Under the pieces are notes generated by a model. The model was given only the letters and a program-made list of their open reading frames with translations. It did no database searches and was not told the DNA's origin. DNA of 64,000 nucleotides from Methanomassiliicoccales archaeon UBA280. GTDB lineage: Archaea > Thermoplasmatota > Thermoplasmata > SG8-5. The stretch lies in assembly GCA_002499085.1 (NCBI GenBank), contig DAKD01000032.1, forward strand, positions 1,315-65,314, in the 5' to 3' direction. Shown here in pieces: positions 6,622 to 19,251 of this stretch; the stretch's first letter is position 1; every line of letters begins with the position of its first letter. The position numbers and the translations under genes are program-made.

Positions 6622-7269
6622 CTAGGCCTTTGAAGCCATCATCACAATCGACTCCCTCGGATATATCTGGCCTTCATGTCTCACTTTCCTCTCGATAATC
6701 TGGAAATGCCTGACAGAAAGTCCGGCGCCCTTGACCAACGAGTCAAGTTCCTGCCCGAGATAGAACCTCCAGACAAGGCCTTCTTCCCTGAGATAGGTGC
6801 GCGGGAATATCTCGGAGCCCTTGCCCGACCGCATGTCCGCCGGGGAAAAGACCTCGATGAGGACCATGCCCCTGGGCGCAAGAACCCTGGCCGTCTCCTT
6901 CAGAATGGCTTGGTCGTCGCCCGGGATAGCATGTGTGAGCACGTGCCTGGAGACGACAGCCGAGAACGAGTTGTCCCTGAAGGGAAGGTTCCTGGCATCG
7001 CCGACCACCCGATTGAACTTCGGATCCTTCATGAGGAAAGTCCGGAATGATTCGCGGGAGATGTCCAGGCAGACAAGGTTCCTGCAGTGCCGTTCGATTT
7101 CCGAGGCAGTGTTTCCGTCCCCCGAACCGAGTTCCAGGACATTTCCTGCGAGGTCAAGGAATTCGGAGTAGGCTGATAGATCAAATCCTCCGCGCCACTG
7201 AGTTCCTTTTCGGGCATAGGATGTATCCCAGGCCAGAGGATAGGTCTTTCGGTCGAGTTCAGCGTTCAT
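6622..7269 (-). CDS. Class I SAM-dependent methyltransferase
   Basis: Motif I VLELGSGDGN and post-I LDIS. Typical length. Confidence 0.85.
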   Translation of the reverse strand: MNAELDRKTYPLAWDTSYARKGTQWRGGFDLSAYSEFLDLAGNVLELGSGDGNTASEIERHCRNLVCLDISRESFRTFLMKDPKFNRVVGDARNLPFRDNSFSAVVSRHVLTHAIPGDDQAILKETARVLAPRGMVLIEVFSPADMRSGKGSEIFPRTYLREEGLVWRFYLGQELDSLVKGAGLSVRHFQIIERKVRHEGQIYPRESIVMMASKA

Positions 7270-7336
7270 CGTTCACCGCCGTTCCCGGTTCCGAAGTATG
7301 TCCAAATGTCCCGAAGGGACTTTGGATGCAGGAAAA

Positions 7337-8779: not shown

Positions 8780-11700
8780 TCAACCGGTCCCGGTTTCTTT
8801 GCGGCATCTCGACGCCCAAAAAGACTTGCCAAGGGCCTCGAAGCATTCGGCGGCCTTGAGGAAACTAGCTGCAGCCTTCGTGTCCTCTCCCATGGCTTTC
8901 CTCAGCATGCCAATCTCGAAATATACCAGGCCGGTTTGATCTCTGTCCGAGGCGGAGAGGACCAAATTTAAGGCCCTATCCAGCTCGCTTGCGGCACTGT
9001 CCCATTCGCCCTTCGCCCTGTGAATGGCGCCGAGGATTCTGCGCCCTGCCGCTTCCCCGCTGGTCGAGTTCAACTCAGAGGAGATTTCTATAGACTCCCT
9101 GGCGCATGACAGGGCTTCGGCTAGGTTGCCCAGCCCCAGATACGTTTCGGCCATTCCAATATTGAAAAACGCAAGCCCGTGCCTGCTTCCCAAATCTTTT
9201 TCGATGTCGAGGCCCCGCTTGTAGCGCTCAAGGGCTTCGAGCCATTCATGCCTGAGCCTGTGTGCCTCGCCCAGATCCCTGAGGGATTCGGACACCCCCG
9301 AAAGCTGGCCCAATTTCTCACGTATGGCCAGGCTGCGGCTGTGAAACTCGAGGGCCTTATCCAGTTCCCCGAGGTCCACATGTATATTTCCCATGTTGTG
9401 CAAGGACAGGGCTATTGCTTGCTGGTTCCCCAGCGCTTCGTGCATCCTGAGGCCGTTCATTGTGTGTTCCAACGCGCTGTCAAGGTTGCCGAGTCTGTGA
9501 TATATATCGCCGATATTGGTCAGGGATGTAGCTATGCCTGATTTATCCCCTATTGACTCGAGTATGGCAAGGCCCTGTTTGTGGAACTCGAGCGCTTTCA
9601 CGATATCGCATTTGGCAGTGTAGACATTGGCTATATTGCTCAGCGATGTAGCTATACCCTGCTTGTCACCGAGCTTTCTCCTGATCGCAAGACTGCGCTC
9701 GTAGCATTGTATGGACTCATCCAGCTCACATTTGTCCGAATACACGACACCGATATTATTTAGCGATGCTGAGATGCCTAGCTTATCCCCAATCTTTTCC
9801 CTGATCGCCAGACTCTCTTTATAATTCTGGAGGGCTTTGTCCAGCTCCCCTCTGCTATGATGCACTATCCCTATGATGTTGTGGGAATTTGCAACTGCCA
9901 ATTGGTCATTGGCCAGTTTCATCATTTTAAGGCTTTGCTCGGCGAACTGGAGTGCCGAGTTGAAATCGCCTCTGGCGATATATATCGGGCTCAAAGCCCG
10001 GAGTGCCTCACCCAAGTCGGCCTGGGAGTCCAGTTCCTTGAAAAGGTTTATCGCATCGTGGAATAATGGCATGGCCTTATCATAGTTCCCCTTCTTCCAT
10101 TGGACCGAGCCCTCGGCGAGCATTATGCGCCCCATCTCAAGGCACTTGACGCCGCCAAGGGAGTCCCTGGCAATCGCCAACGTCTGAAGGGCTTCTTCGA
10201 ATTCACCCCGCTTATCCAGAACAGTCCCTGTTTTTCGAAGGGACCTGGCCCGGGTTTCGGCTTCTGCCGAGGACTCCATCTCCCTCGAATAATATCGAAT
10301 GGCATTCTCGTAATCGCCTTCTATAGTATAGATGTCGGCAATTTTTTCAAATATTACAGGTTGTTCGTCCGGCCGTAGAAAGTCCAATGCATTCTCGTAC
10401 GATTGTATCGCGTCCTGGTTGACGAAAGCCTGTGCAGCCTTATCCCCGGCGAGAACAAGATATTGCCCTGCACGCTGGTCCCGGGCGCGTGAATAATGAT
10501 GGGCGATCTCTTCGATACGGTCCATCTCCCCGGCTTCCTGCAAGCCGACAAGTATATCGCCGACTTGCCTATGGTATTCGCTCCTCAACTCATCAGAAAT
10601 CTCCTGGTACAGCACCTCGCGGACCTTTGCATGGTCGAACCTATATTTGGATTTCATGGCATGTATCAGCCTATGGGTTCGCTCGATCTCACCCAGATGC
10701 TTCAGCAAAGGAATTTTCTTGACCTCGGAGATTCTTTCCAGCAGGTCGGCGGAGAACTCTTCGCCGATTACTGAGGCTAATCCGAGGAGGTCCCTCTGGT
10801 CGCCCGTGATCCTGTCCAGCCGCCGCTGCACGACGTCAACAATCTTAGTCGGCAGCGCCAAGCTGCCTGGGTCCTTTGCGACAATCCATCTGCCGGACCC
10901 GTCGCGCACGATCGCCCCCTCATCCGCCAGAACCTTCAGCACCTCGATGATGAAGAAGGGTGTGCCTCCCGTCTGCTTATGTATCCCATGAAGGAAATTC
11001 TCGTCGAACCCGTTCGGGCCCAAGGTGAAGGTGATGAGATTTCCAGTCTCATTCTCATTGAACCTCTCAAGTTCAATTCTGTGGAATAGCCCTTCCCTAC
11101 CCATGTTCTGCATTGCAGCTTCCAGGGGATTCGGTTTTCCGTCCCGGGCTCGTACTAAGTCCTCGGGGCGATAGGCCCCAAGAATTAATACCCTGTTTTC
11201 CCTCGTATTGCGGGCAATGTAATGCAACAGCCGCAGGCTTGTGGGGTCACACCATTGGAGATCATCCACAAAAATGATCAGAGGCCATTCTGATGAAAAC
11301 CTTTGCAGACCGATGAGGACGTTGTCGAACAGGTTCTCCTGCTTCAGGCGGGGTTTGTCCAGAATATTCGAACCATTGTACTTGCCTGAATCGATGAACC
11401 AGGCCAGCTTCGGGATTACGAACTCAGATTCGGAGGTATCACCGCGCCAGCCGTCCAGCTTTCCGTCCAATTTTATGAGCAGCTGTTTCATGTCATCGAT
11501 GAGGAATTCATTCTCCGTCCCCTCGAGCACCAGACTCAACGAGAGGGTGCCGCGCTTGCTGAGCATTATCTTGTACTGCCCGTAACCGATGGAGTTCAGG
11601 CTACCTTCCCGGGAGTGTGTCATTTTTGAGAGTGAGTCCCTCATGAAAGTGCCAACTGCGGACAGCATTGAGGCGAAAATCTCAGAGTCGAGGTCTGTAT

Positions 11701-12112
11701 CCCCCCTCTCGGCTTTCGCGAGCAGTATGCCGGCCTCGTTCATCAGGTAGACGGACAGTACCCTTGGTGTAGATACCTTGGAGATGAGATGGGCAAGACC
11801 TGCTGTCCGTAGCATTTCACTGAAGGGCATCAGGGGTTCGAGACTTTCGGCAAGACACCATCCTTTAAGGACCTTAAAGCTTGAGCACTTGGGATTGTTC
11901 TCCAGTTCAGACACAAGTCTGGTCTTTCCTATGCCAGCTTCGCCCGCAAGCAATATCATTGACCCATGCGACTCTATTGCGCTGTCCAGGGCAGCCTCAA
12001 GTCTAGAAATCTCTGATTTTCTCCCGATAAAATTCAGATTATCGCGAATCTCATCACTTTGCAGGAATCCCACCGAGGGAGAATACCATTTTTCCTTATT
12101 ATGCTTATGCAA
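8780..12112 (-). CDS. STAND-like P-loop ATPase with Roadblock/LC7-like insert and long C-terminal TPR array
   Basis: Walker A GEAGIGKTRL. Walker B LIIFVDDLQWCD lies ~200 aa later. The insert VLSVYLMNEAGILLAKAERG...FASMLSAVGTFMRDS...LSLSLVLEG resembles Roadblock/MglB. More than 12 TPR units follow (e.g. NIGVVYSDKCELDESIQCYERSLAIRRKLGD). Confidence 0.8.
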   Translation of the reverse strand: MHKHNKEKWYSPSVGFLQSDEIRDNLNFIGRKSEISRLEAALDSAIESHGSMILLAGEAGIGKTRLVSELENNPKCSSFKVLKGWCLAESLEPLMPFSEMLRTAGLAHLISKVSTPRVLSVYLMNEAGILLAKAERGDTDLDSEIFASMLSAVGTFMRDSLSKMTHSREGSLNSIGYGQYKIMLSKRGTLSLSLVLEGTENEFLIDDMKQLLIKLDGKLDGWRGDTSESEFVIPKLAWFIDSGKYNGSNILDKPRLKQENLFDNVLIGLQRFSSEWPLIIFVDDLQWCDPTSLRLLHYIARNTRENRVLILGAYRPEDLVRARDGKPNPLEAAMQNMGREGLFHRIELERFNENETGNLITFTLGPNGFDENFLHGIHKQTGGTPFFIIEVLKVLADEGAIVRDGSGRWIVAKDPGSLALPTKIVDVVQRRLDRITGDQRDLLGLASVIGEEFSADLLERISEVKKIPLLKHLGEIERTHRLIHAMKSKYRFDHAKVREVLYQEISDELRSEYHRQVGDILVGLQEAGEMDRIEEIAHHYSRARDQRAGQYLVLAGDKAAQAFVNQDAIQSYENALDFLRPDEQPVIFEKIADIYTIEGDYENAIRYYSREMESSAEAETRARSLRKTGTVLDKRGEFEEALQTLAIARDSLGGVKCLEMGRIMLAEGSVQWKKGNYDKAMPLFHDAINLFKELDSQADLGEALRALSPIYIARGDFNSALQFAEQSLKMMKLANDQLAVANSHNIIGIVHHSRGELDKALQNYKESLAIREKIGDKLGISASLNNIGVVYSDKCELDESIQCYERSLAIRRKLGDKQGIATSLSNIANVYTAKCDIVKALEFHKQGLAILESIGDKSGIATSLTNIGDIYHRLGNLDSALEHTMNGLRMHEALGNQQAIALSLHNMGNIHVDLGELDKALEFHSRSLAIREKLGQLSGVSESLRDLGEAHRLRHEWLEALERYKRGLDIEKDLGSRHGLAFFNIGMAETYLGLGNLAEALSCARESIEISSELNSTSGEAAGRRILGAIHRAKGEWDSAASELDRALNLVLSASDRDQTGLVYFEIGMLRKAMGEDTKAAASFLKAAECFEALGKSFWASRCRKETGTG

Positions 12113-13319: not shown

Positions 13320-15068
13320 CTATTTCTTCTGCATCTCGTAGAGCGCCAGCATCTCCTCGGAGTTGGTAGCGTCCTCCGGAGCCTTGTCCTTCCGTATGAT
13401 GCCAGTGAATCGGGGAAACCTGATGGCCAGGCCCGAACCTTTCCTCACGGCTTCCCACGCGCAGGTGTGTATGGGCGAGAGCGTTATCTCTGCGCCTTTG
13501 ACTTCCATCACCAGGCTGGGCTCGAACCAGAAGTCGGCCTTCATGGTGCTTCTGACCAGCCTGTGGGGCTTGCCTCCCTTCAGCGGCTCCAGCATCCCGG
13601 GCAGCGCTGCAAGCATTTCATCGTCGAAGCCGGTTCCGAGTTTTGTGACTGTCTCGAATCGCCCGTCTTCCCGGTTATACACTGCCATGAGCAGGGCCCC
13701 GTAAGCCCCGGCCCGCTTTCCCCTTCCGGAGAATCCTCCGACCGCGACAAGGTCGACAGTGTCGTTCATCTCCGATTTGTAGTCGCGCTTGAACTTTATC
13801 CAGTTCCAGCCCCTGGAGCCGGCGCGGTAGAACGAATCCTTGGCCAGGGATTTGGCCATCACACCCTCGCCGCCCTTGGCCACCACCTTGCTGAAGTACT
13901 CCTCGGCCTCTTCCGGGTCATCGGTGACAAGAACCTCGGCCAGCTTCACACGTTCCGACTCCCGGATACAGGACTCCAGTTTCTTCCGCCGGTTCGTGTA
14001 CGGGGTCTGCGTGAGGTCCTTTCCGTTGAGGTAAAGGCAGTCGAACAGGAACAGCATCACCGGAAAATCCTCCACAGCCGAAGTAAGTTCGTACTTGCGG
14101 CCCCTGCGGCGGCTGACAGTCTGGAAAGGCAGCATCTCCCCGGTGTTAACATCCACTGGCACGCATTCCCCTTCCAGGACCGCGGCCTTGCCTTTGAAGG
14201 CCTTGGCCAGAAGCCCGACCAGGTCCGGGAACTGGTCTGTCGTATTTTCCAGCTGCCTCGTGAACAATTCCACCTTCCCGCCCTTGATGTGGGCCTGTAT
14301 CCTGAGGCCGTCGTACTTGTACTCGAATGCGCATTTTCCGCCGAGCTTCTCCAATATCTCGGGTATGCCCGGAAGCCTTTCCGCCAGCATGGCCCTGAGA
14401 GGTATGCCGACCTCCAGCTCTATCTCATCCAGCCCGACGAGTCCCTTGGAGGCTAGAAGCTTCGCCACCCTGGCCAGGTCCGAGCAGGTGTTGTAGGCAT
14501 GCTCGACCCTGTCCCTGTCGTCCTTGGTGGCATAGGTCACGGCCAATGCGTCGATGAGCGTCATGTCGGCAATGCCGAGCCTCAGCTTTCCCGCAAGAGT
14601 CCGGGCTATGAATTTGGCTTCTACGGGTGAGGAATCGTGCATCAGCTTGGCCAGGAGCTTCAGCTTCAAATCCTGCGAGCCCGCGCCCGAGGCAGAGGAA
14701 ATATGAACCAAGCTGTCGAAGACATTGTCAACGCTCAGAGTGTCCGTGAAAAGGGAGGTCTGCTTCCTCCTGGACACTGCCTCGAAGGCCACTGTGCCCA
14801 GGTCGCCCTCCTTCTGCCATAATCTCTGGATTTCAGCTTCGCTGACGCGGGTGGCCTCGTAGATGGCCCTGAGGGCCAGCTTCTCGGCGATTCCGAGCTC
14901 CTGGCCTGCAAAATCGGGCGCGAGCTTGCCCTGGGTGAGGAGCACGACCTTCTCGATGTCGCCAGGCGGGATTTTCCTGAAAAGCTCCGCCAGCAGGTCG
15001 GTCATATCCAGGCGCTTGCTTGTGGCCTCGATTCTTGAGTAGGCTTGGGCAAGCGTGAGGTAGTCCAT
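13320..15068 (-). CDS. lig: ATP-dependent DNA ligase
   Basis: Adenylation motif EYKYDGLRIQAH (KxDG), plus EGVMAK and WIKFKRDY motifs. The 582-aa length is typical of archaeal Lig. Confidence 0.95.
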   Translation of the reverse strand: MDYLTLAQAYSRIEATSKRLDMTDLLAELFRKIPPGDIEKVVLLTQGKLAPDFAGQELGIAEKLALRAIYEATRVSEAEIQRLWQKEGDLGTVAFEAVSRRKQTSLFTDTLSVDNVFDSLVHISSASGAGSQDLKLKLLAKLMHDSSPVEAKFIARTLAGKLRLGIADMTLIDALAVTYATKDDRDRVEHAYNTCSDLARVAKLLASKGLVGLDEIELEVGIPLRAMLAERLPGIPEILEKLGGKCAFEYKYDGLRIQAHIKGGKVELFTRQLENTTDQFPDLVGLLAKAFKGKAAVLEGECVPVDVNTGEMLPFQTVSRRRGRKYELTSAVEDFPVMLFLFDCLYLNGKDLTQTPYTNRRKKLESCIRESERVKLAEVLVTDDPEEAEEYFSKVVAKGGEGVMAKSLAKDSFYRAGSRGWNWIKFKRDYKSEMNDTVDLVAVGGFSGRGKRAGAYGALLMAVYNREDGRFETVTKLGTGFDDEMLAALPGMLEPLKGGKPHRLVRSTMKADFWFEPSLVMEVKGAEITLSPIHTCAWEAVRKGSGLAIRFPRFTGIIRKDKAPEDATNSEEMLALYEMQKK

Positions 15069-15106
15069 GCTAAGCAGAAGGAAATGAGAATATTTAATCT
15101 ATGGCG

Positions 15107-15229
15107 TCAGAGCATTCCCGCCAACCTAGCCATGTCCGTCTCCGCGACATGTGTGTATATCTGGGTTGTCTTGAGGTCTTTGTGGCCGAGCAGTTTCTTG
15201 ATATGGACTGCACCCCTTTTCACGGACAC
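15107..15229 (-). pseudogene. Tyrosine recombinase/integrase, C-terminal ~40-aa remnant
   Basis: Translation VSVKRGAVHIKKLLGHKDLKTTQIYTHVAETDMARLAGML* contains the LLGH...TT..Y(T)H box with the catalytic Tyr. It is bounded upstream by an in-frame TAG, and no remainder of the gene is present. Confidence 0.75.
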
Positions 15230-15586
15230 CTATAATAGTGAATAACGCATGAAACGTGAAGATATACAAAACAGACACTTGAACGTCGAACCCCCCACGA
15301 CGGACGAACTGGACGACGAACCCCGTAAGAAAAAACTACGGCAACAACGGAATTTACGGCAGGGTTTCAAACTTCTTCGGCACTTCGTGCCTCGACCCCG
15401 CTGCGCTCTCGCTTCGCTCGGGAAAGATAACATGCGGCTATCTGGCTTCGGGGGTTGCACCCCCTACGACCCAAATTCCCCTTCGGGGAACTTCAGATAG
15501 CCCCACCCGTTATACGAAACCGTGGATGGGTGTTTATTAGCAACAATATATTAGGCGATACCGTGCATCCCATCCAATCAAAAGGA

Positions 15587-16333
15587 TCACAATGCATTAA
15601 TGACAAACTCGCACACGGTCCTGAATGATGGCGTTTCTCCCACCAGTTGAGCCATCTCGCTGTCCCATTTCCTTTCCAGTAACTTGCATTGTTTCATGAA
15701 ATTCTCACGATTGAATTCCAGGTCATAATATTGAAGCTTCTGGTTAACGGTGTCGAGATCGGGTTTCTTTCCTCCGAGCATGAGCATGTAGAGGTCATAC
15801 ATGTCCCTGGCCTTGCTCCTCGTCAGTATGGCGCGCACTTTCTCTGAGGCGATTTCTTCCGGATTCATGACCTCGATAATGTAAGGAAGTATGTCCGCGT
15901 AAGGCGGCGCGATTTCCTTCCGCTCGGGCTCTTCAAAGACTGATTCTCTCTTGCTTATTTCTATCCGCACCGAAGAAAGGCTCTCCGGCCCCTTGTAAAG
16001 CGGGCCTTGTATCAGCAGCCTGAAACCTATGGTTCTTTCATCATCCATAGTTCTGTCTGATTCAGATGGGTAGTTGTAGGCATCAAGTGCGCTTGTAACC
16101 GCCCTGCTCAGCCGCTCCATGGTCTGCGGTTTTCTTGCGGTGAAATCCAGGTCTTCGCTGAATCTTGTAACTATCCCTGTTTTTTGAAGAGCCGTACCTC
16201 CTTTGAATGTGATCTCGCCGCCCATGTTTCTGGAAATGGCCCCCAAAATAATATGCTGCAAATAGTCTTTCTCCACCTGGCCAAGCGAATGTCCGGTTAT
16301 TCCGATGTATTTTTTCAGTTCTTCCCTGTTCAT
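15587..16333 (-). CDS. abiEii: AbiEii/AbiGii-family nucleotidyltransferase toxin (type IV TA)
   Basis: Hallmark FKGGTAL...RFSEDLDF motifs. ATGA overlap with the upstream antitoxin gene. Confidence 0.88.
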   Translation of the reverse strand: MNREELKKYIGITGHSLGQVEKDYLQHIILGAISRNMGGEITFKGGTALQKTGIVTRFSEDLDFTARKPQTMERLSRAVTSALDAYNYPSESDRTMDDERTIGFRLLIQGPLYKGPESLSSVRIEISKRESVFEEPERKEIAPPYADILPYIIEVMNPEEIASEKVRAILTRSKARDMYDLYMLMLGGKKPDLDTVNQKLQYYDLEFNRENFMKQCKLLERKWDSEMAQLVGETPSFRTVCEFVINAL

Positions 16334-17055
16334 TCAATCACCGTGTTCACGATTATTCGCCACTTCGGGTCATACTTGCCTTGCTTCGGGTTTTTCGGGT
16401 CTAACGGAACATAAGTTTGAGATAATCCACCGAAGTCATACGGCTGGCAAGAGTATCCGGCTTTTTCCAGAAGGTACCCTGCCCGTTTCATCACCGATTG
16501 TTTCTCGCTTCTCTTTGCATATTCAATAATTTTTTCCGGTTCTATCGTGCTGGACATGGAAAAATAGACCTCGTCCAGCGAGATATAGTCCATGTATTGC
16601 AGGCTATCGATTATGGCCCGTTCTTTCTCAGCTATAAAGGCAATTTTGCCTTCTATTTTGACTTTCTTGATGCCATATATTTTTGAGGACGCGGTATTGA
16701 TGAACCTAATCTGGAAATTACCGGTTTCCAATTCGATCTTCAGAACACACGGCCTTTTAGTGCAGACCACATCCACCATTCTTGGCATCTGGGTTGTGGC
16801 TCCATAATATTCGAAAGCTTTCCATAGTGAAACATAAGACGGAAAGTAAATACTGGACGCTATGCAAAGAATATCAGTATCGGGCAGAGCGAATCTTCCC
16901 CGCATGATTCTGGTCAGTTCGTTCGCGCCAATCATCCGATTCAACAGGACGGCGGCATACGCACTATCTTTGCCCAATATCGCAGAGAATTGTTGCACTG
17001 TAAACACCGGTATTTGCATGTTTTCTAGCATTTTTACGACCGAAAGCCTGTTCAT
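16330..17055 (-). CDS. abiEi: AbiEi-family antitoxin / transcriptional regulator
   Basis: N-terminal wHTH (FTVQQFSAILGKDSAYAAVLLNRMIGANELTRIMRGRFAL). Position and coupling to abiEii. Start trimmed to the Met at 17055. Confidence 0.8.
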   Translation of the reverse strand: MNRLSVVKMLENMQIPVFTVQQFSAILGKDSAYAAVLLNRMIGANELTRIMRGRFALPDTDILCIASSIYFPSYVSLWKAFEYYGATTQMPRMVDVVCTKRPCVLKIELETGNFQIRFINTASSKIYGIKKVKIEGKIAFIAEKERAIIDSLQYMDYISLDEVYFSMSSTIEPEKIIEYAKRSEKQSVMKRAGYLLEKAGYSCQPYDFGGLSQTYVPLDPKNPKQGKYDPKWRIIVNTVIE

Positions 17056-17149
17056 CGAGTAGGATAGCACAATTATCATATATATGTCTTTTGATGTCAC
17101 CAGATTATCATAAATGTAATTTAGCGACAATAAAGTACATATATTATCA

Positions 17150-17299
17150 TGCAATTATCTCGTCCAGAACGATCCTGACCATCTCGACTTCGACTGCGAG
17201 TACCTGTTTGATTAATTCAACAAGAAGGTCAGTCATCTCCAGGCGCTTGCTGGTCGCCTCGATTCCCTCGTAGGTTCGGGCAAGGGTGAGGTAGTCCAT
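17150..17299 (-). pseudogene. Displaced, diverged 5' fragment of the DNA ligase gene
   Basis: MDYLTLARTYEGIEATSKRLEMTDLLVELIKQ compared with the intact lig MDYLTLAQAYSRIEATSKRLDMTDLLAELFRK. After ~32 codons similarity is lost and a stop follows. Confidence 0.8.
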
Positions 17300-17353
17300 G
17301 GCAGGGAGATTGGGCTGAGAATATTTAATTGTGAGGAATGCCATGCGCCCGCT

Positions 17354-17788
17354 ATGCTCAAGAAACTCGCAGACTCGGATGAGGGAAAAGCCGTTGCGGC
17401 CGCGCTGGAGAGGCTGAATCAGAGAGATCAGGCCCTCTGGGCTGCAGATTGCGCCGAGCATGTTCTCCCGTTTTTCGAGGCAAAGTGCCCCGGAGAGGTG
17501 AGGCCCCGGGAGGCAATCGAGGCGGCAAGAGCCTGGGCCCGGGGTGAAATTAGATGCGGCGCGGCCAGGAAGGCTGCCCTGGCTGCCCATGCTGCGGCCA
17601 GGGAGGCGGGGGATGGGGCTGCTGTCGCGGCAGCCAGGGCCGCCGGGCATGCTGCGGCAACCACCCATGTGGCCAGGCATTCTGCCGGCGCCGGGCTCTA
17701 TGCGGCGAAGGCGGCGTTCATTTCAGGCGGCCATGAGGGCCTCGACAGGGAAAGGAAATGGCAGCTGGAGAGGCTGGCGGACGGTTAG
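17354..17788 (+). CDS. Ala-rich helical protein resembling the 'putative immunity protein / Imm5-like' family (function unknown)
   Basis: The pattern ALWAADCAEHVLPFFE...PREAIEAARAWARGE...AALAAHAAAREA...AAARAAGHAAATTHVARHSAGAGLYAAKA is recalled from a widespread bacterial family. Very GC-rich, with competing ORFs in other frames. Confidence 0.5.
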   Translation: MLKKLADSDEGKAVAAALERLNQRDQALWAADCAEHVLPFFEAKCPGEVRPREAIEAARAWARGEIRCGAARKAALAAHAAAREAGDGAAVAAARAAGHAAATTHVARHSAGAGLYAAKAAFISGGHEGLDRERKWQLERLADG

Positions 17789-17904
17789 GTGCTCACCAGA
17801 TGATTGCACGCGCGCGCAGGCAGTTGCGGCAACCTGGCTCGCAAAAATCCACCCATGCCATTAAATACCCACCCGGTATGGGATTGGTAAAGAAGGAATG
17901 AATA

Positions 17905-19251
17905 ATGGGATGCGAAAATTTCTCAGAATTTAAACTCCTGGAGCCGCTCAACCGCGCCATCCGGGACGTAGGATACTCTGTGCCCACCCCGGTTCAGGTC
18001 CAATCGATTCCGCCGCTGATGGCGGGAAGGGACCTGCTCGGATGCGCGCAGACAGGAACAGGAAAGACGGCAGCATTCGCGCTGCCCATACTGCAGCACA
18101 TGGCTACGGTGAGGGGACAGAGGCGGAAGGGTTATGTCAGGGCGTTGATAGTCACTCCGACCCGCGAGCTTGCCGCCCAGATAGACCAGAGCATGAAGGA
18201 TTACTCCAGGTACACGAATGTCACGGGCGCCGTGATATTCGGCGGAGTGGGCCAGAACCCGCAGGTCAGGGCTTTGGAGAGGGGAGTCGACATACTTGTG
18301 GCGACGCCCGGACGCCTTCTGGACCTCATGAACCAGGGCCATTTACGTCTCGACAGCGTGGAGATATTCGTCCTGGACGAGGCGGACCGCATGCTGGACA
18401 TGGGCTTCCTCCCGGACATAAAGAGGATACTGGCCAAGCTGCCGGCGAAGCGCCAGACCATGTTCTTCTCTGCGACGATGCCTCCGGACATAGTCAGACT
18501 GGCAAGGACCATGGTCAGGGACCCGGTCAGCGTCGACGTGACGCCCGATATCCCGGTTGTGGAACTCATAGACCAGCGCCTGATGTTCGTCGAGCGCAAG
18601 GACAAGGTCGCGCTGCTGGAGCGCCTGCTCCGCGAGAACGGTGTGAACCGTTCGCTGGTGTTCACCAGGACCAAGCACGGCGCCAACAAGATTGTCAGGA
18701 TACTTGACCGCGCAGGAATACGCGCGCTTGCCATACACGGGAACAAGGCCCAGAGTGCCAGGACGAAGGCGCTCGAGGACTTCCGGACCGGAAGGGTGAG
18801 AGTGCTCGTGGCAACGGACATCGCAGCCAGGGGCATAGATGTTGAGGGCATAAGCCATGTCGTGAATTTCGACATACCGAATGTGCCTGAAACGTACGTT
18901 CACCGCATAGGCAGGACTGCCAGGGCGGGAAACGCAGGCATCTCTGTATCGTTCTGCGACTCCGAGGAGAGGTCCTATGTCAGGGACATCGAGAAGCTTC
19001 TCAGACATCCGATACCGGTGGTCAGTGACCATCCGTACCATTCCGAGGCTGCCGCAAAATCGACGCAGCTGGCGCCCCCGCAGGGACAGAGAGGACATGG
19101 CCGACCCCAGGGAGAGCGCAGGGCCAGACCGCAGAATCAACAGGGCAACAGGCGGCCCGGAAACCCGAGACGCAGCGAACGTTCCGGAGCCAGGCGGGGA
19201 AACTCGGACTTCAGGCAATCTCGTCCAGGTCAATCCCAGCCGACTCGCTGA
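17905..19251 (+). CDS. DEAD-box ATP-dependent RNA helicase (RhlE-like) with basic C-terminal tail
   Basis: Q-motif region, AQTGTGKTAAF, PTRELA, DEAD, SAT and HRIGRTARAG motifs. Confidence 0.93.
   Translation: MGCENFSEFKLLEPLNRAIRDVGYSVPTPVQVQSIPPLMAGRDLLGCAQTGTGKTAAFALPILQHMATVRGQRRKGYVRALIVTPTRELAAQIDQSMKDYSRYTNVTGAVIFGGVGQNPQVRALERGVDILVATPGRLLDLMNQGHLRLDSVEIFVLDEADRMLDMGFLPDIKRILAKLPAKRQTMFFSATMPPDIVRLARTMVRDPVSVDVTPDIPVVELIDQRLMFVERKDKVALLERLLRENGVNRSLVFTRTKHGANKIVRILDRAGIRALAIHGNKAQSARTKALEDFRTGRVRVLVATDIAARGIDVEGISHVVNFDIPNVPETYVHRIGRTARAGNAGISVSFCDSEERSYVRDIEKLLRHPIPVVSDHPYHSEAAAKSTQLAPPQGQRGHGRPQGERRARPQNQQGNRRPGNPRRSERSGARRGNSDFRQSRPGQSQPTR

Follow-up and report, generated by a model that had tools for sequence, protein, structure and literature searches.

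The dusA-specific elements (for example IMEVchUSA3) and the integrative and conjugative elements SXT/R391 at prfC insert into the 5′ end of a housekeeping gene, supply it with a new promoter and new 5′ sequence, and leave the original 5′ end, now displaced, at the distal junction (PMC8409611, PMC5812530). Among integrated mobile genetic elements (iMGEs) of Thaumarchaeota, 14 of 68 lie in protein-coding genes, all 14 in 3′-distal regions and with short attachment (att) sites (PMC6563490). Archaeal viral cases in protein-coding genes, such as BJ1 and Msmi-Pro1, are few, and their description does not mention 5′ restoration (PMC8371274). Here we analyse a locus in a Methanomassiliicoccales archaeon that we read, with a probability of roughly 85%, as a decayed Campbell-type element in the 5′ end of lig, the gene for the ATP-dependent DNA ligase. 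In this reading an element-borne promoter now stands before lig, the native 5′ end is displaced, and an AbiE toxin-antitoxin pair has been kept. The locus lies on the minus strand of a 64,000-nt stretch of contig DAKD01000032.1 (assembly GCA_002499085.1), hereafter the window, and all positions on minus-strand features are given as window positions.

An initial sequence-only reading of the window had likened the locus to SXT at prfC, and the analogy is apt, as the locus works the same way. The mechanism is a known one; what is new is the archaeal host, the lig target and the Xer-like integrase. Relative to the SXT and dusA elements, the host is an archaeon, the replaced promoter is of the TATA-box type with a probably leaderless mRNA, the target is a replicative ATP-dependent DNA ligase, and the integrase is a 271-aa Xer/IntI-like protein rather than one of the SXT or DusA integrase families. 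Neither conjugation or mobilisation genes nor a recombination directionality factor (the excision-directing accessory protein) were seen here, and the window copy is a remnant that can no longer excise. In the dusA elements the new N-terminus matches the old one at 61% over 35 residues, compared with about 75% over 30 residues in the window. With the thaumarchaeal iMGEs, BJ1 and Msmi-Pro1 the locus has in common a tyrosine-recombinase element in an archaeon, a protein-coding target, direct repeats and an empty-site comparison (PMC6563490, PMC8371274); it departs from the thaumarchaeal iMGEs in affecting the 5′ end and promoter and in having a homologous block of about 150 nt. A full-text literature search turned up no paper in which a DNA ligase gene is named as an integration target in archaea, and no archaeal report of 5′-end insertion with promoter replacement was found in the surveys consulted.

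The 5′ end of lig is present twice

A genome scan with a ligase query placed the window in Methanomassiliicoccales/Thermoplasmata and gave 80 lig loci, labelled L001 onwards. The nearest is L001, whose lig is 87% identical to that of the window; the lig genes of L003 and L006, which carry much of the argument below, are 79% and 74% identical. The window lig retains all three Pfam ligase domains (DNA_ligase_A_N, 1e-44; _M, 1e-58; _C, 1e-20).

The sequence-only reading had noted that the 5′ end of lig is duplicated, and three comparisons confirm it. A repeat search of the window gave a single 153-nt direct repeat with 73% ungapped identity (Table 1), BLASTN within the window aligned the copies at 80.4% identity over 107 nt (E = 2.9e-22), and a DNA profile built from the lig 5′ ends of relatives matched the window at these two places only (E = 2e-47 and 2e-41). 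With the same profile, a second lig 5′ copy was absent from every other lig locus fetched. The copies lie about 2.2 kb apart, the orphan upstream of lig. On the minus strand, each begins at ATTAAATATTCTCA and crosses the ATG, at 15068 on the intact gene and at 17299 on the orphan. The copies have diverged, and an identical core longer than 15 nt is no longer present. From its own ATG the orphan is lig-like to about codon 42 (...LLVELIKQVLAVEVEMV), rather than for the roughly 32 codons first proposed; it then runs into element DNA and stops after 50 codons. Against L001, the orphan-side copy shows 83% identity over 145 nt.

Between the two window copies, the synonymous divergence (dS) is 0.76–0.87 and the ratio of nonsynonymous to synonymous divergence (dN/dS) is 0.19–0.28, values like those between species of the group. 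A dS of about 0.8 with a dN/dS of about 0.2 points to diverged functional alleles rather than a local duplicate, as expected if one of them arrived on an element. The DNA between the copies (15069–17146) has a G+C content of 0.46, against 0.59–0.61 in lig and the upstream genes. A 2292-nt stretch (15069–17360), together with both flanks, recurs at 100% identity in contigs assembled independently from at least five samples (ENA, JGI, Logan), and the insert arrangement is fixed in this population.

An empty site and the origin of the promoter

The sequence-only reading had called for a comparison with related genomes to find the empty site, and L001 has it. In L001 a divergent Imm5 gene lies 55 nt from the lig ATG with nothing between the two; in the window, the distance from the divergent Imm5 to the orphan is 54 nt. 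The neighbours of L001 also match those of the window, with MscL downstream and the Imm5-like gene, a DEAD helicase, an HD protein and a 168-aa open reading frame (ORF) upstream.

The TATA box TTAAATAT sits at −29 to −22 from the lig ATG, a spacing that, given standard archaeal promoter geometry, suggests a leaderless lig mRNA. The TATA boxes of the intact gene and the orphan occupy 15090–15097 and 17321–17328, respectively. Homology between the two copies starts exactly at this TATA region, 8 nt past the stop codon of the integrase remnant described below. In the 24-nt spacer between TATA box and ATG, the orphan is identical to L001 at 23 of 24 positions, and the intact gene agrees with L003 at 18, with L006 at 17 and with L001 at 16, so that the lead of L003 and L006 over L001 is slight. 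The difference between the two window copies in their match to L001 (23/24 versus 16/24) identifies the orphan as the likely native 5′ end, and an element origin is supported for the promoter and spacer of the intact gene. On this basis lig would now be transcribed from the element-borne TATA box, and the native promoter presumably reads into the orphan and possibly into abiE. The GAGAATATTTAAT box, which the sequence-only reading had pointed out, is simply the lig TATA-box region and is kept in most of the closest relatives, with or without an element. A sigma-70 promoter scan is inapplicable to an archaeon and was disregarded.

An integrase remnant at a recurring junction

The ORF at 15107–15229 on the minus strand matches PF00589 at E = 6.9e-5, under the Pfam gathering score. 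The final 32 residues share 90.6% identity with the C-terminus of the full-length 271-aa integrase P0001 (tblastn, E = 3.5e-13), and the first 8 are not integrase. The 40-aa integrase remnant of the sequence-only reading does align to tyrosine-recombinase C-termini, LLGH...IYTHV included, with the integrase portion reduced to these 32 residues. In the alignment, the remnant keeps the catalytic His (LLGH) and Tyr (IYTHV) and is without the remaining catalytic residues and the N-terminal domain; by tblastn, integrase N-terminal sequence is absent from the entire window.

Full-length versions stand at the same place in two relatives. In L003 and L006, a 271-aa tyrosine recombinase on the lig strand ends 38 nt and 62 nt, respectively, before the lig ATG, and the stop-to-TATA junction (…CTCTGA-N-CATAGRTTAAATATTCTC…) is common to the window remnant, L003 and L006. 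Among the 80 lig loci, only these two have a related integrase within 10 kb. Upstream of the L006 integrase the G+C content drops to 0.33, against 0.45–0.46 in the host. The expectation that relatives would carry intact copies of the element is thus borne out for the integrase at this junction and not for a complete element.

A separate observation concerns L031. An identical 21-nt string (CTGACAACATAGGTTAAATAT) occurs there (about 7255–7285) and at the integrase-stop-to-TATA junction of L003 (3759–3779). L031 is without a detectable integrase and its lig is only 69% identical to that of L003; the string in L031 may be the scar of an older element.

A common backbone and an intact AbiE operon

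A second homology links the window to L003. Window positions 15396–15519 are 80% identical over 124 nt to L003 1561–1681 (E = 4e-21), in the same order and orientation relative to integrase and lig. This collinearity indicates that the two inserts have a common backbone and not an integrase alone, and that about 1.9 kb was deleted in the window, taking most of the integrase gene. The corresponding 1.9 kb of L003 comprises the greater part of the integrase gene together with the region upstream of it and a KilA-N gene.

The match falls in a non-coding block of about 180 nt that lies upstream of the integrase in three elements, namely the window (Table 1), L003 (1561–1745) and L162 (1–195). The block shows an outer stem GGCTATCTG…CAGATAGCC as well as inner hairpins that vary between copies, and it ends in GCCGTRGTTTTTT, a T-run. 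An Rfam search of 15050–15650 gave no match, and a consensus fold computed from two sequences only is suggestive; the block may be an element-borne small structured RNA.

Between the block and the orphan lies the AbiE pair, whose assignment in the sequence-only reading is upheld by PF08843 for AbiEii and by PADLOC for both proteins. AbiEii scores 1.6e-30 with PF08843 (107 bits, cut-off 22.5) and 1.8e-70 with the PADLOC AbiEii model, over its full length. AbiEi, in its 249-aa form, matches PADLOC over its full length at 7.1e-46, and the Pfam models AbiEi_4 and AbiEi_1 are under threshold; its open frame runs on to a TTG at 17154. As in known AbiE type IV toxin-antitoxin or abortive infection systems, the pair forms a two-gene operon with the antitoxin gene first and a 4-nt overlap (16330–16333). 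Relative to those systems, the predicted pair in the window is archaeal, sits in a decayed integrative element and follows directly downstream of a displaced housekeeping promoter. It was presumably kept because of addiction or defence. The cargo of L003 is a different one, comprising a KilA-N protein that matches PADLOC PDC-S22 (1e-126), an RHH protein and an AlbA_2-like protein, a set typical of mobile elements and defence islands.

How much of lig may have been replaced

The sequence-only reading held that the element supplied both a replacement N-terminus and a promoter. The promoter part is supported, given the non-native spacer on the intact copy; the N-terminus part is less certain, as the junction in L006 appears to fall near codon 9 and that in the window is not placeable. 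From −24 to +27, L006 agrees with L003 at 40 of 51 positions and with its own relative L008 at 30 of 51; from +28 to +126 the order is reversed, with 56 of 99 positions for L003 and 80 of 99 for L008 (Fisher p about 0.01 for the switch). The crossover in L006 therefore appears to lie near +27, at about codon 9, a placement that carries a p-value of only about 0.01. In the window, possibly only about 9 codons may have been replaced.

The window copies themselves give a mixed picture at the protein level. Over the first 42 residues, the intact copy matches L001 at 33 of 42 and the orphan at 27 of 42. The intact copy has in common with L001 an otherwise unique LAQAY motif, and the orphan protein is more like those of other lineages (LLVEL…EVEMV, as in L005). 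This pattern fits either a crossover near the ATG, with the coding part of the orphan coming from the element, or the decay of a native orphan. Identity matrices of the first 42 codons of L003, L006 and the window showed no clear foreign anomaly. After the insertion, the lig ORF remains intact with its full N-terminal domain.

The recombinase family and its palindrome

The lig-linked integrases sit in a clade of 271-aa proteins with at least 71% identity. The clade is nearest to archaeal XerA and the integron integrases and scores under both NCBIfam cut-offs: 181–197 bits against 220 for XerA, and 184–197 against 265 for IntI, where the match comes in two stretches. Membership in either family was rejected on these curated cut-offs. 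The integrase has a SAM-like N-terminal domain, in the PDB it comes closest to IntI4, XerA and XerD (about 1e-34), and clade members show a weak Pfam match to MrpR_C_cat, which we take to represent plasmid multimer-resolution recombinases.

The clade is not confined to lig. Integrases 73–83% identical to a lig-linked one adjoin a GNAT acetyltransferase gene tail-to-tail in several genomes (L161–L166), one of them in the same assembly as L003. Further clade integrases occur in other contexts, and the nearest relatives of the integrase in the protein database, P0002–P0010, are in other contexts or on short contigs. One clade member, P0007, occurs in the four samples that also yielded the window's own contigs, so the organism of the window probably has a full-length, GNAT-linked paralogue elsewhere. 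The contigs of L161–L164 all break 170–480 nt upstream of the integrase, which suggests that the DNA there is variable or repeated; the search for att-like repeats around the GNAT-linked integrases was limited to the upstream sequence on these short contigs.

About 55 nt ahead of its ATG, every full-length integrase of the clade has one conserved 43-nt palindrome, TAACTCCTATTAAGCG-N11-CGCTTATTKGGAGTTA. With 16-nt arms and an 11-nt spacer, it is found a single time at each locus, and the window has lost it. It could serve as an operator, or as the site on which the recombinase itself acts. An integron-like reading, with repeated attC-like sites, was rejected since the palindrome occurs only once per locus.

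Among known Xer modules, XerS (with difSL) and XerH (with difH) have the recombinase gene next to its site, and dif sites have a spacer of 6–8 nt. The family described here resembles these modules and archaeal XerA in its XerA/IntI-like recombinase, and resembles XerS/difSL and XerH/difH in the single palindromic site immediately upstream of the full-length gene. It differs from dif sites in the 11-nt spacer and from the Xer modules in that its genes stand beside variable, AT-rich, defence-type cargo.

Proposed history and alternative explanations

The empty site in L001, the junction integrases of L003 and L006, the alignment of the remnant and the AbiE pair together uphold the integrative-element reading. 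We propose that the element would have been circular, with a Xer/IntI-like tyrosine recombinase at one end and, directly after the recombinase stop codon, a copy of the lig promoter and 5′ coding sequence (about −30 to +125). Campbell-style recombination with the chromosomal lig 5′ end, presumably catalysed by the recombinase itself, would have joined the body of lig to the element promoter and moved the native promoter and first 42 or so codons 2.2 kb away, where they would now lie beside the divergent Imm5 gene as a 50-codon orphan. Later, one or more deletions would have removed about 240 integrase codons, the conserved region upstream of the integrase and any cargo between integrase and backbone block, after which the element could no longer excise. 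Left over would be the integrase tail, the non-coding backbone block and the complete abiEi/abiEii operon.

Several observations weigh against this history. Compared bin by bin, the two window copies are about equally similar to L001 across the coding part, so that the crossover is not placeable there. L003 and L006 have no second lig 5′ copy, both contigs stopping inside the element. Neither a complete element, with its two ends and its integrase intact, nor the excised circular form (attP) was found in genome, metagenome and viral collections or in the protein database, integrase relatives in IMG/VR are at most 41% identical with no close one among them, and a search with the 50-aa orphan protein yielded no other orphan, the sole matches being the orphan itself and P0123 (a lig with an in-frame TGA). 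Integrases sharing more than 80% identity with the lig-linked ones occur at other sites, which is unusual for a strictly site-specific integrase, and the palindrome arms are unmatched in the lig 5′ region, so that the lig sequence is perhaps not the site that the recombinase recognises. The last two points bear on an alternative with the same topology, in which host homologous recombination, or else the recombinase acting in a homology-dependent way, produced the crossover through a captured lig fragment of about 150 nt and not at a fixed att core, and the real site of the recombinase is the palindrome upstream of its own gene, serving for example multimer resolution. The long, diverged homology block without a clear identical core fits such a course, as do the presence of same-clade integrases at several unrelated loci, the conserved inverted repeat before every integrase with arms absent from the lig 5′ end, and the weak MrpR_C_cat match. 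The apparent junction also differs between loci, L006 being element-type through codon 9 and the window matching L001 at codons 8–9 of the intact gene (QA), although this evidence on junction position is statistically weak. Speaking for a recombinase-made junction, the integrase stop abuts the lig TATA region in the same nucleotide context in three genomes, as it would for an integrase beside attP, and an identity of 75–80% over 150 nt is poor for homologous recombination today, though it was perhaps higher at the time of insertion. We consider the homology-driven course improbable. A related and more general proposal, doubtful yet worth stating, is that the locus is a relic of a family of small archaeal elements with defence cargo, in which a stretch captured from a host gene (in this case the lig promoter with about 40 codons) determines the target, and not a short att core recognised by a protein; the Xer-like recombinase with its palindrome would then serve another step or act in a homology-dependent manner. 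Targeting by a captured piece would explain both the integrases of more than 80% identity at different genes and the apparent difference in junction between L006 and the window.

Direct repeats around a short insert, and an integrase tail of only 32 residues, could also result if the lig 5′ region had been duplicated locally in tandem and AbiE and an integrase fragment had then inserted between the copies in unrelated events. Such a duplication is very improbable, however, because a dS of about 0.8 with a dN/dS of about 0.2 reflects divergence under selection in separate lineages, the spacer is non-native on the intact copy and nearly unchanged (23/24 to L001) on the orphan, and the integrase-TATA-lig junction is common to L003 and L006, as is the second backbone block to L003. 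That the integrase fragment lies directly beside an att-like repeat recalls the SSV-type elements, in which integration splits the integrase and the 32-residue tail would be the Int(C) half. We give this almost no weight: in L003 and L006 this junction holds unsplit full-length integrases, tblastn detects no integrase N-terminal half in the window, and the protein is Xer/IntI-like with a SAM-like N-terminal domain. An assembly chimera or collapsed repeat is a general risk of metagenome-derived sequence and has nothing further in its favour; the identical 2292-nt stretch with both flanks in ENA, JGI and Logan contigs excludes a chimera for practical purposes and marks the remnant as fixed. In a metagenome scan with the L006 integrase, relatives were at most 61% identical and none lay beside lig, and searches by DNA pattern, one for the backbone block and one for the junction of integrase and lig, gave no matches.

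Feature coordinates and flanking genes

The features of the locus and the palindromes of the integrase clade are collected in Table 1.

Table 1 Features of the lig locus in window positions, and palindromes in positions of the respective loci
Feature	Position	Strand	Basis
lig, ATP-dependent DNA ligase, 582 aa, intact; target gene	13320..15068	-	Pfam domains
Repeat copy on intact gene, attR-like junction: TATA region, spacer, lig codons 1 to ~41	14946..15098	-	
Putative element-borne lig core promoter ATTAAATATTCTCA	15085..15098	-	sequence and conservation among relatives
Tyrosine-recombinase remnant, C-terminal 32 codons and stop	15107..15205	-	PF00589, tblastn
Conserved non-coding backbone block	15340..15519	-	homology to L003, L162
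abiEii, toxin, DUF1814-type nucleotidyltransferase, 248 aa, intact	15587..16333	-	PF08843, PADLOC
abiEi, antitoxin and regulator, 249 aa from ATG 17079, intact	16330..17079	-	PADLOC
Orphan lig 5′ ORF, 50 codons	17147..17299	-	PF04675, E=0.0015
Repeat copy at far end, attL-like junction: putative native lig promoter, spacer, displaced 5′ coding fragment	17177..17329	-	
Putative native lig core promoter ATTAAATATTCTCA, now facing orphan ORF and abiEi/abiEii operon	17316..17329	-	
Palindrome	L003 2857-2899, L006 1138-1180, L162 393-435, L165 575-617, L166 2086-2128		
Palindrome	L167 1340-1382, L168 43-85, L260 638-680, L263 41-83		

The gene directly upstream of lig varies in almost every relative (window 17354–19251; L001, L004, L005, L007, L008, L031). 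The variants include Imm5 with a DEAD helicase, the DEAD helicase alone, a cytidine-deaminase-like gene with a 374-aa membrane protein, an HD protein, and argF; behind the variable genes, the HD protein and the 168-aa ORF (Pfam Trm56) are kept in most relatives. The 5′ flank of lig looks like a long-term hot spot of insertion and rearrangement.

In the window, the gene at 17354–17788 (plus strand), divergent from the native lig promoter and also found in L001, is a stand-alone Imm-5-like immunity gene (PF21805, 5e-43), near which no cognate toxin gene was noticed. Downstream of lig, 8780–12112 (minus strand) encodes a 1110-aa protein with an AAA_16 domain and TPR repeats by Pfam, possibly a STAND-type NTPase. 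Elsewhere, a metagenomic lig (L264, 985–1252) has an in-frame TGA after codon 69, with lig-like sequence continuing in frame; this TGA is a sequencing error, a pseudogene or a case of recoding, and not an orphan fragment.

Discussion

The window, together with the junctions of L003 and L006, indicates that an archaeal element can take over the promoter of a replicative DNA ligase, and the expression of the cell's ligase may now depend on foreign DNA. The locus also offers a concrete case of a defence or addiction module, AbiE, that has turned into a permanent chromosomal gene after the decay of its vehicle. As the window copy is a dead remnant, the practical interest lies in the family and not in this locus, and the analysis points to a compact family of Xer-like integrases in Methanomassiliicoccales, with its palindrome, its non-coding block and its variable defence cargo.

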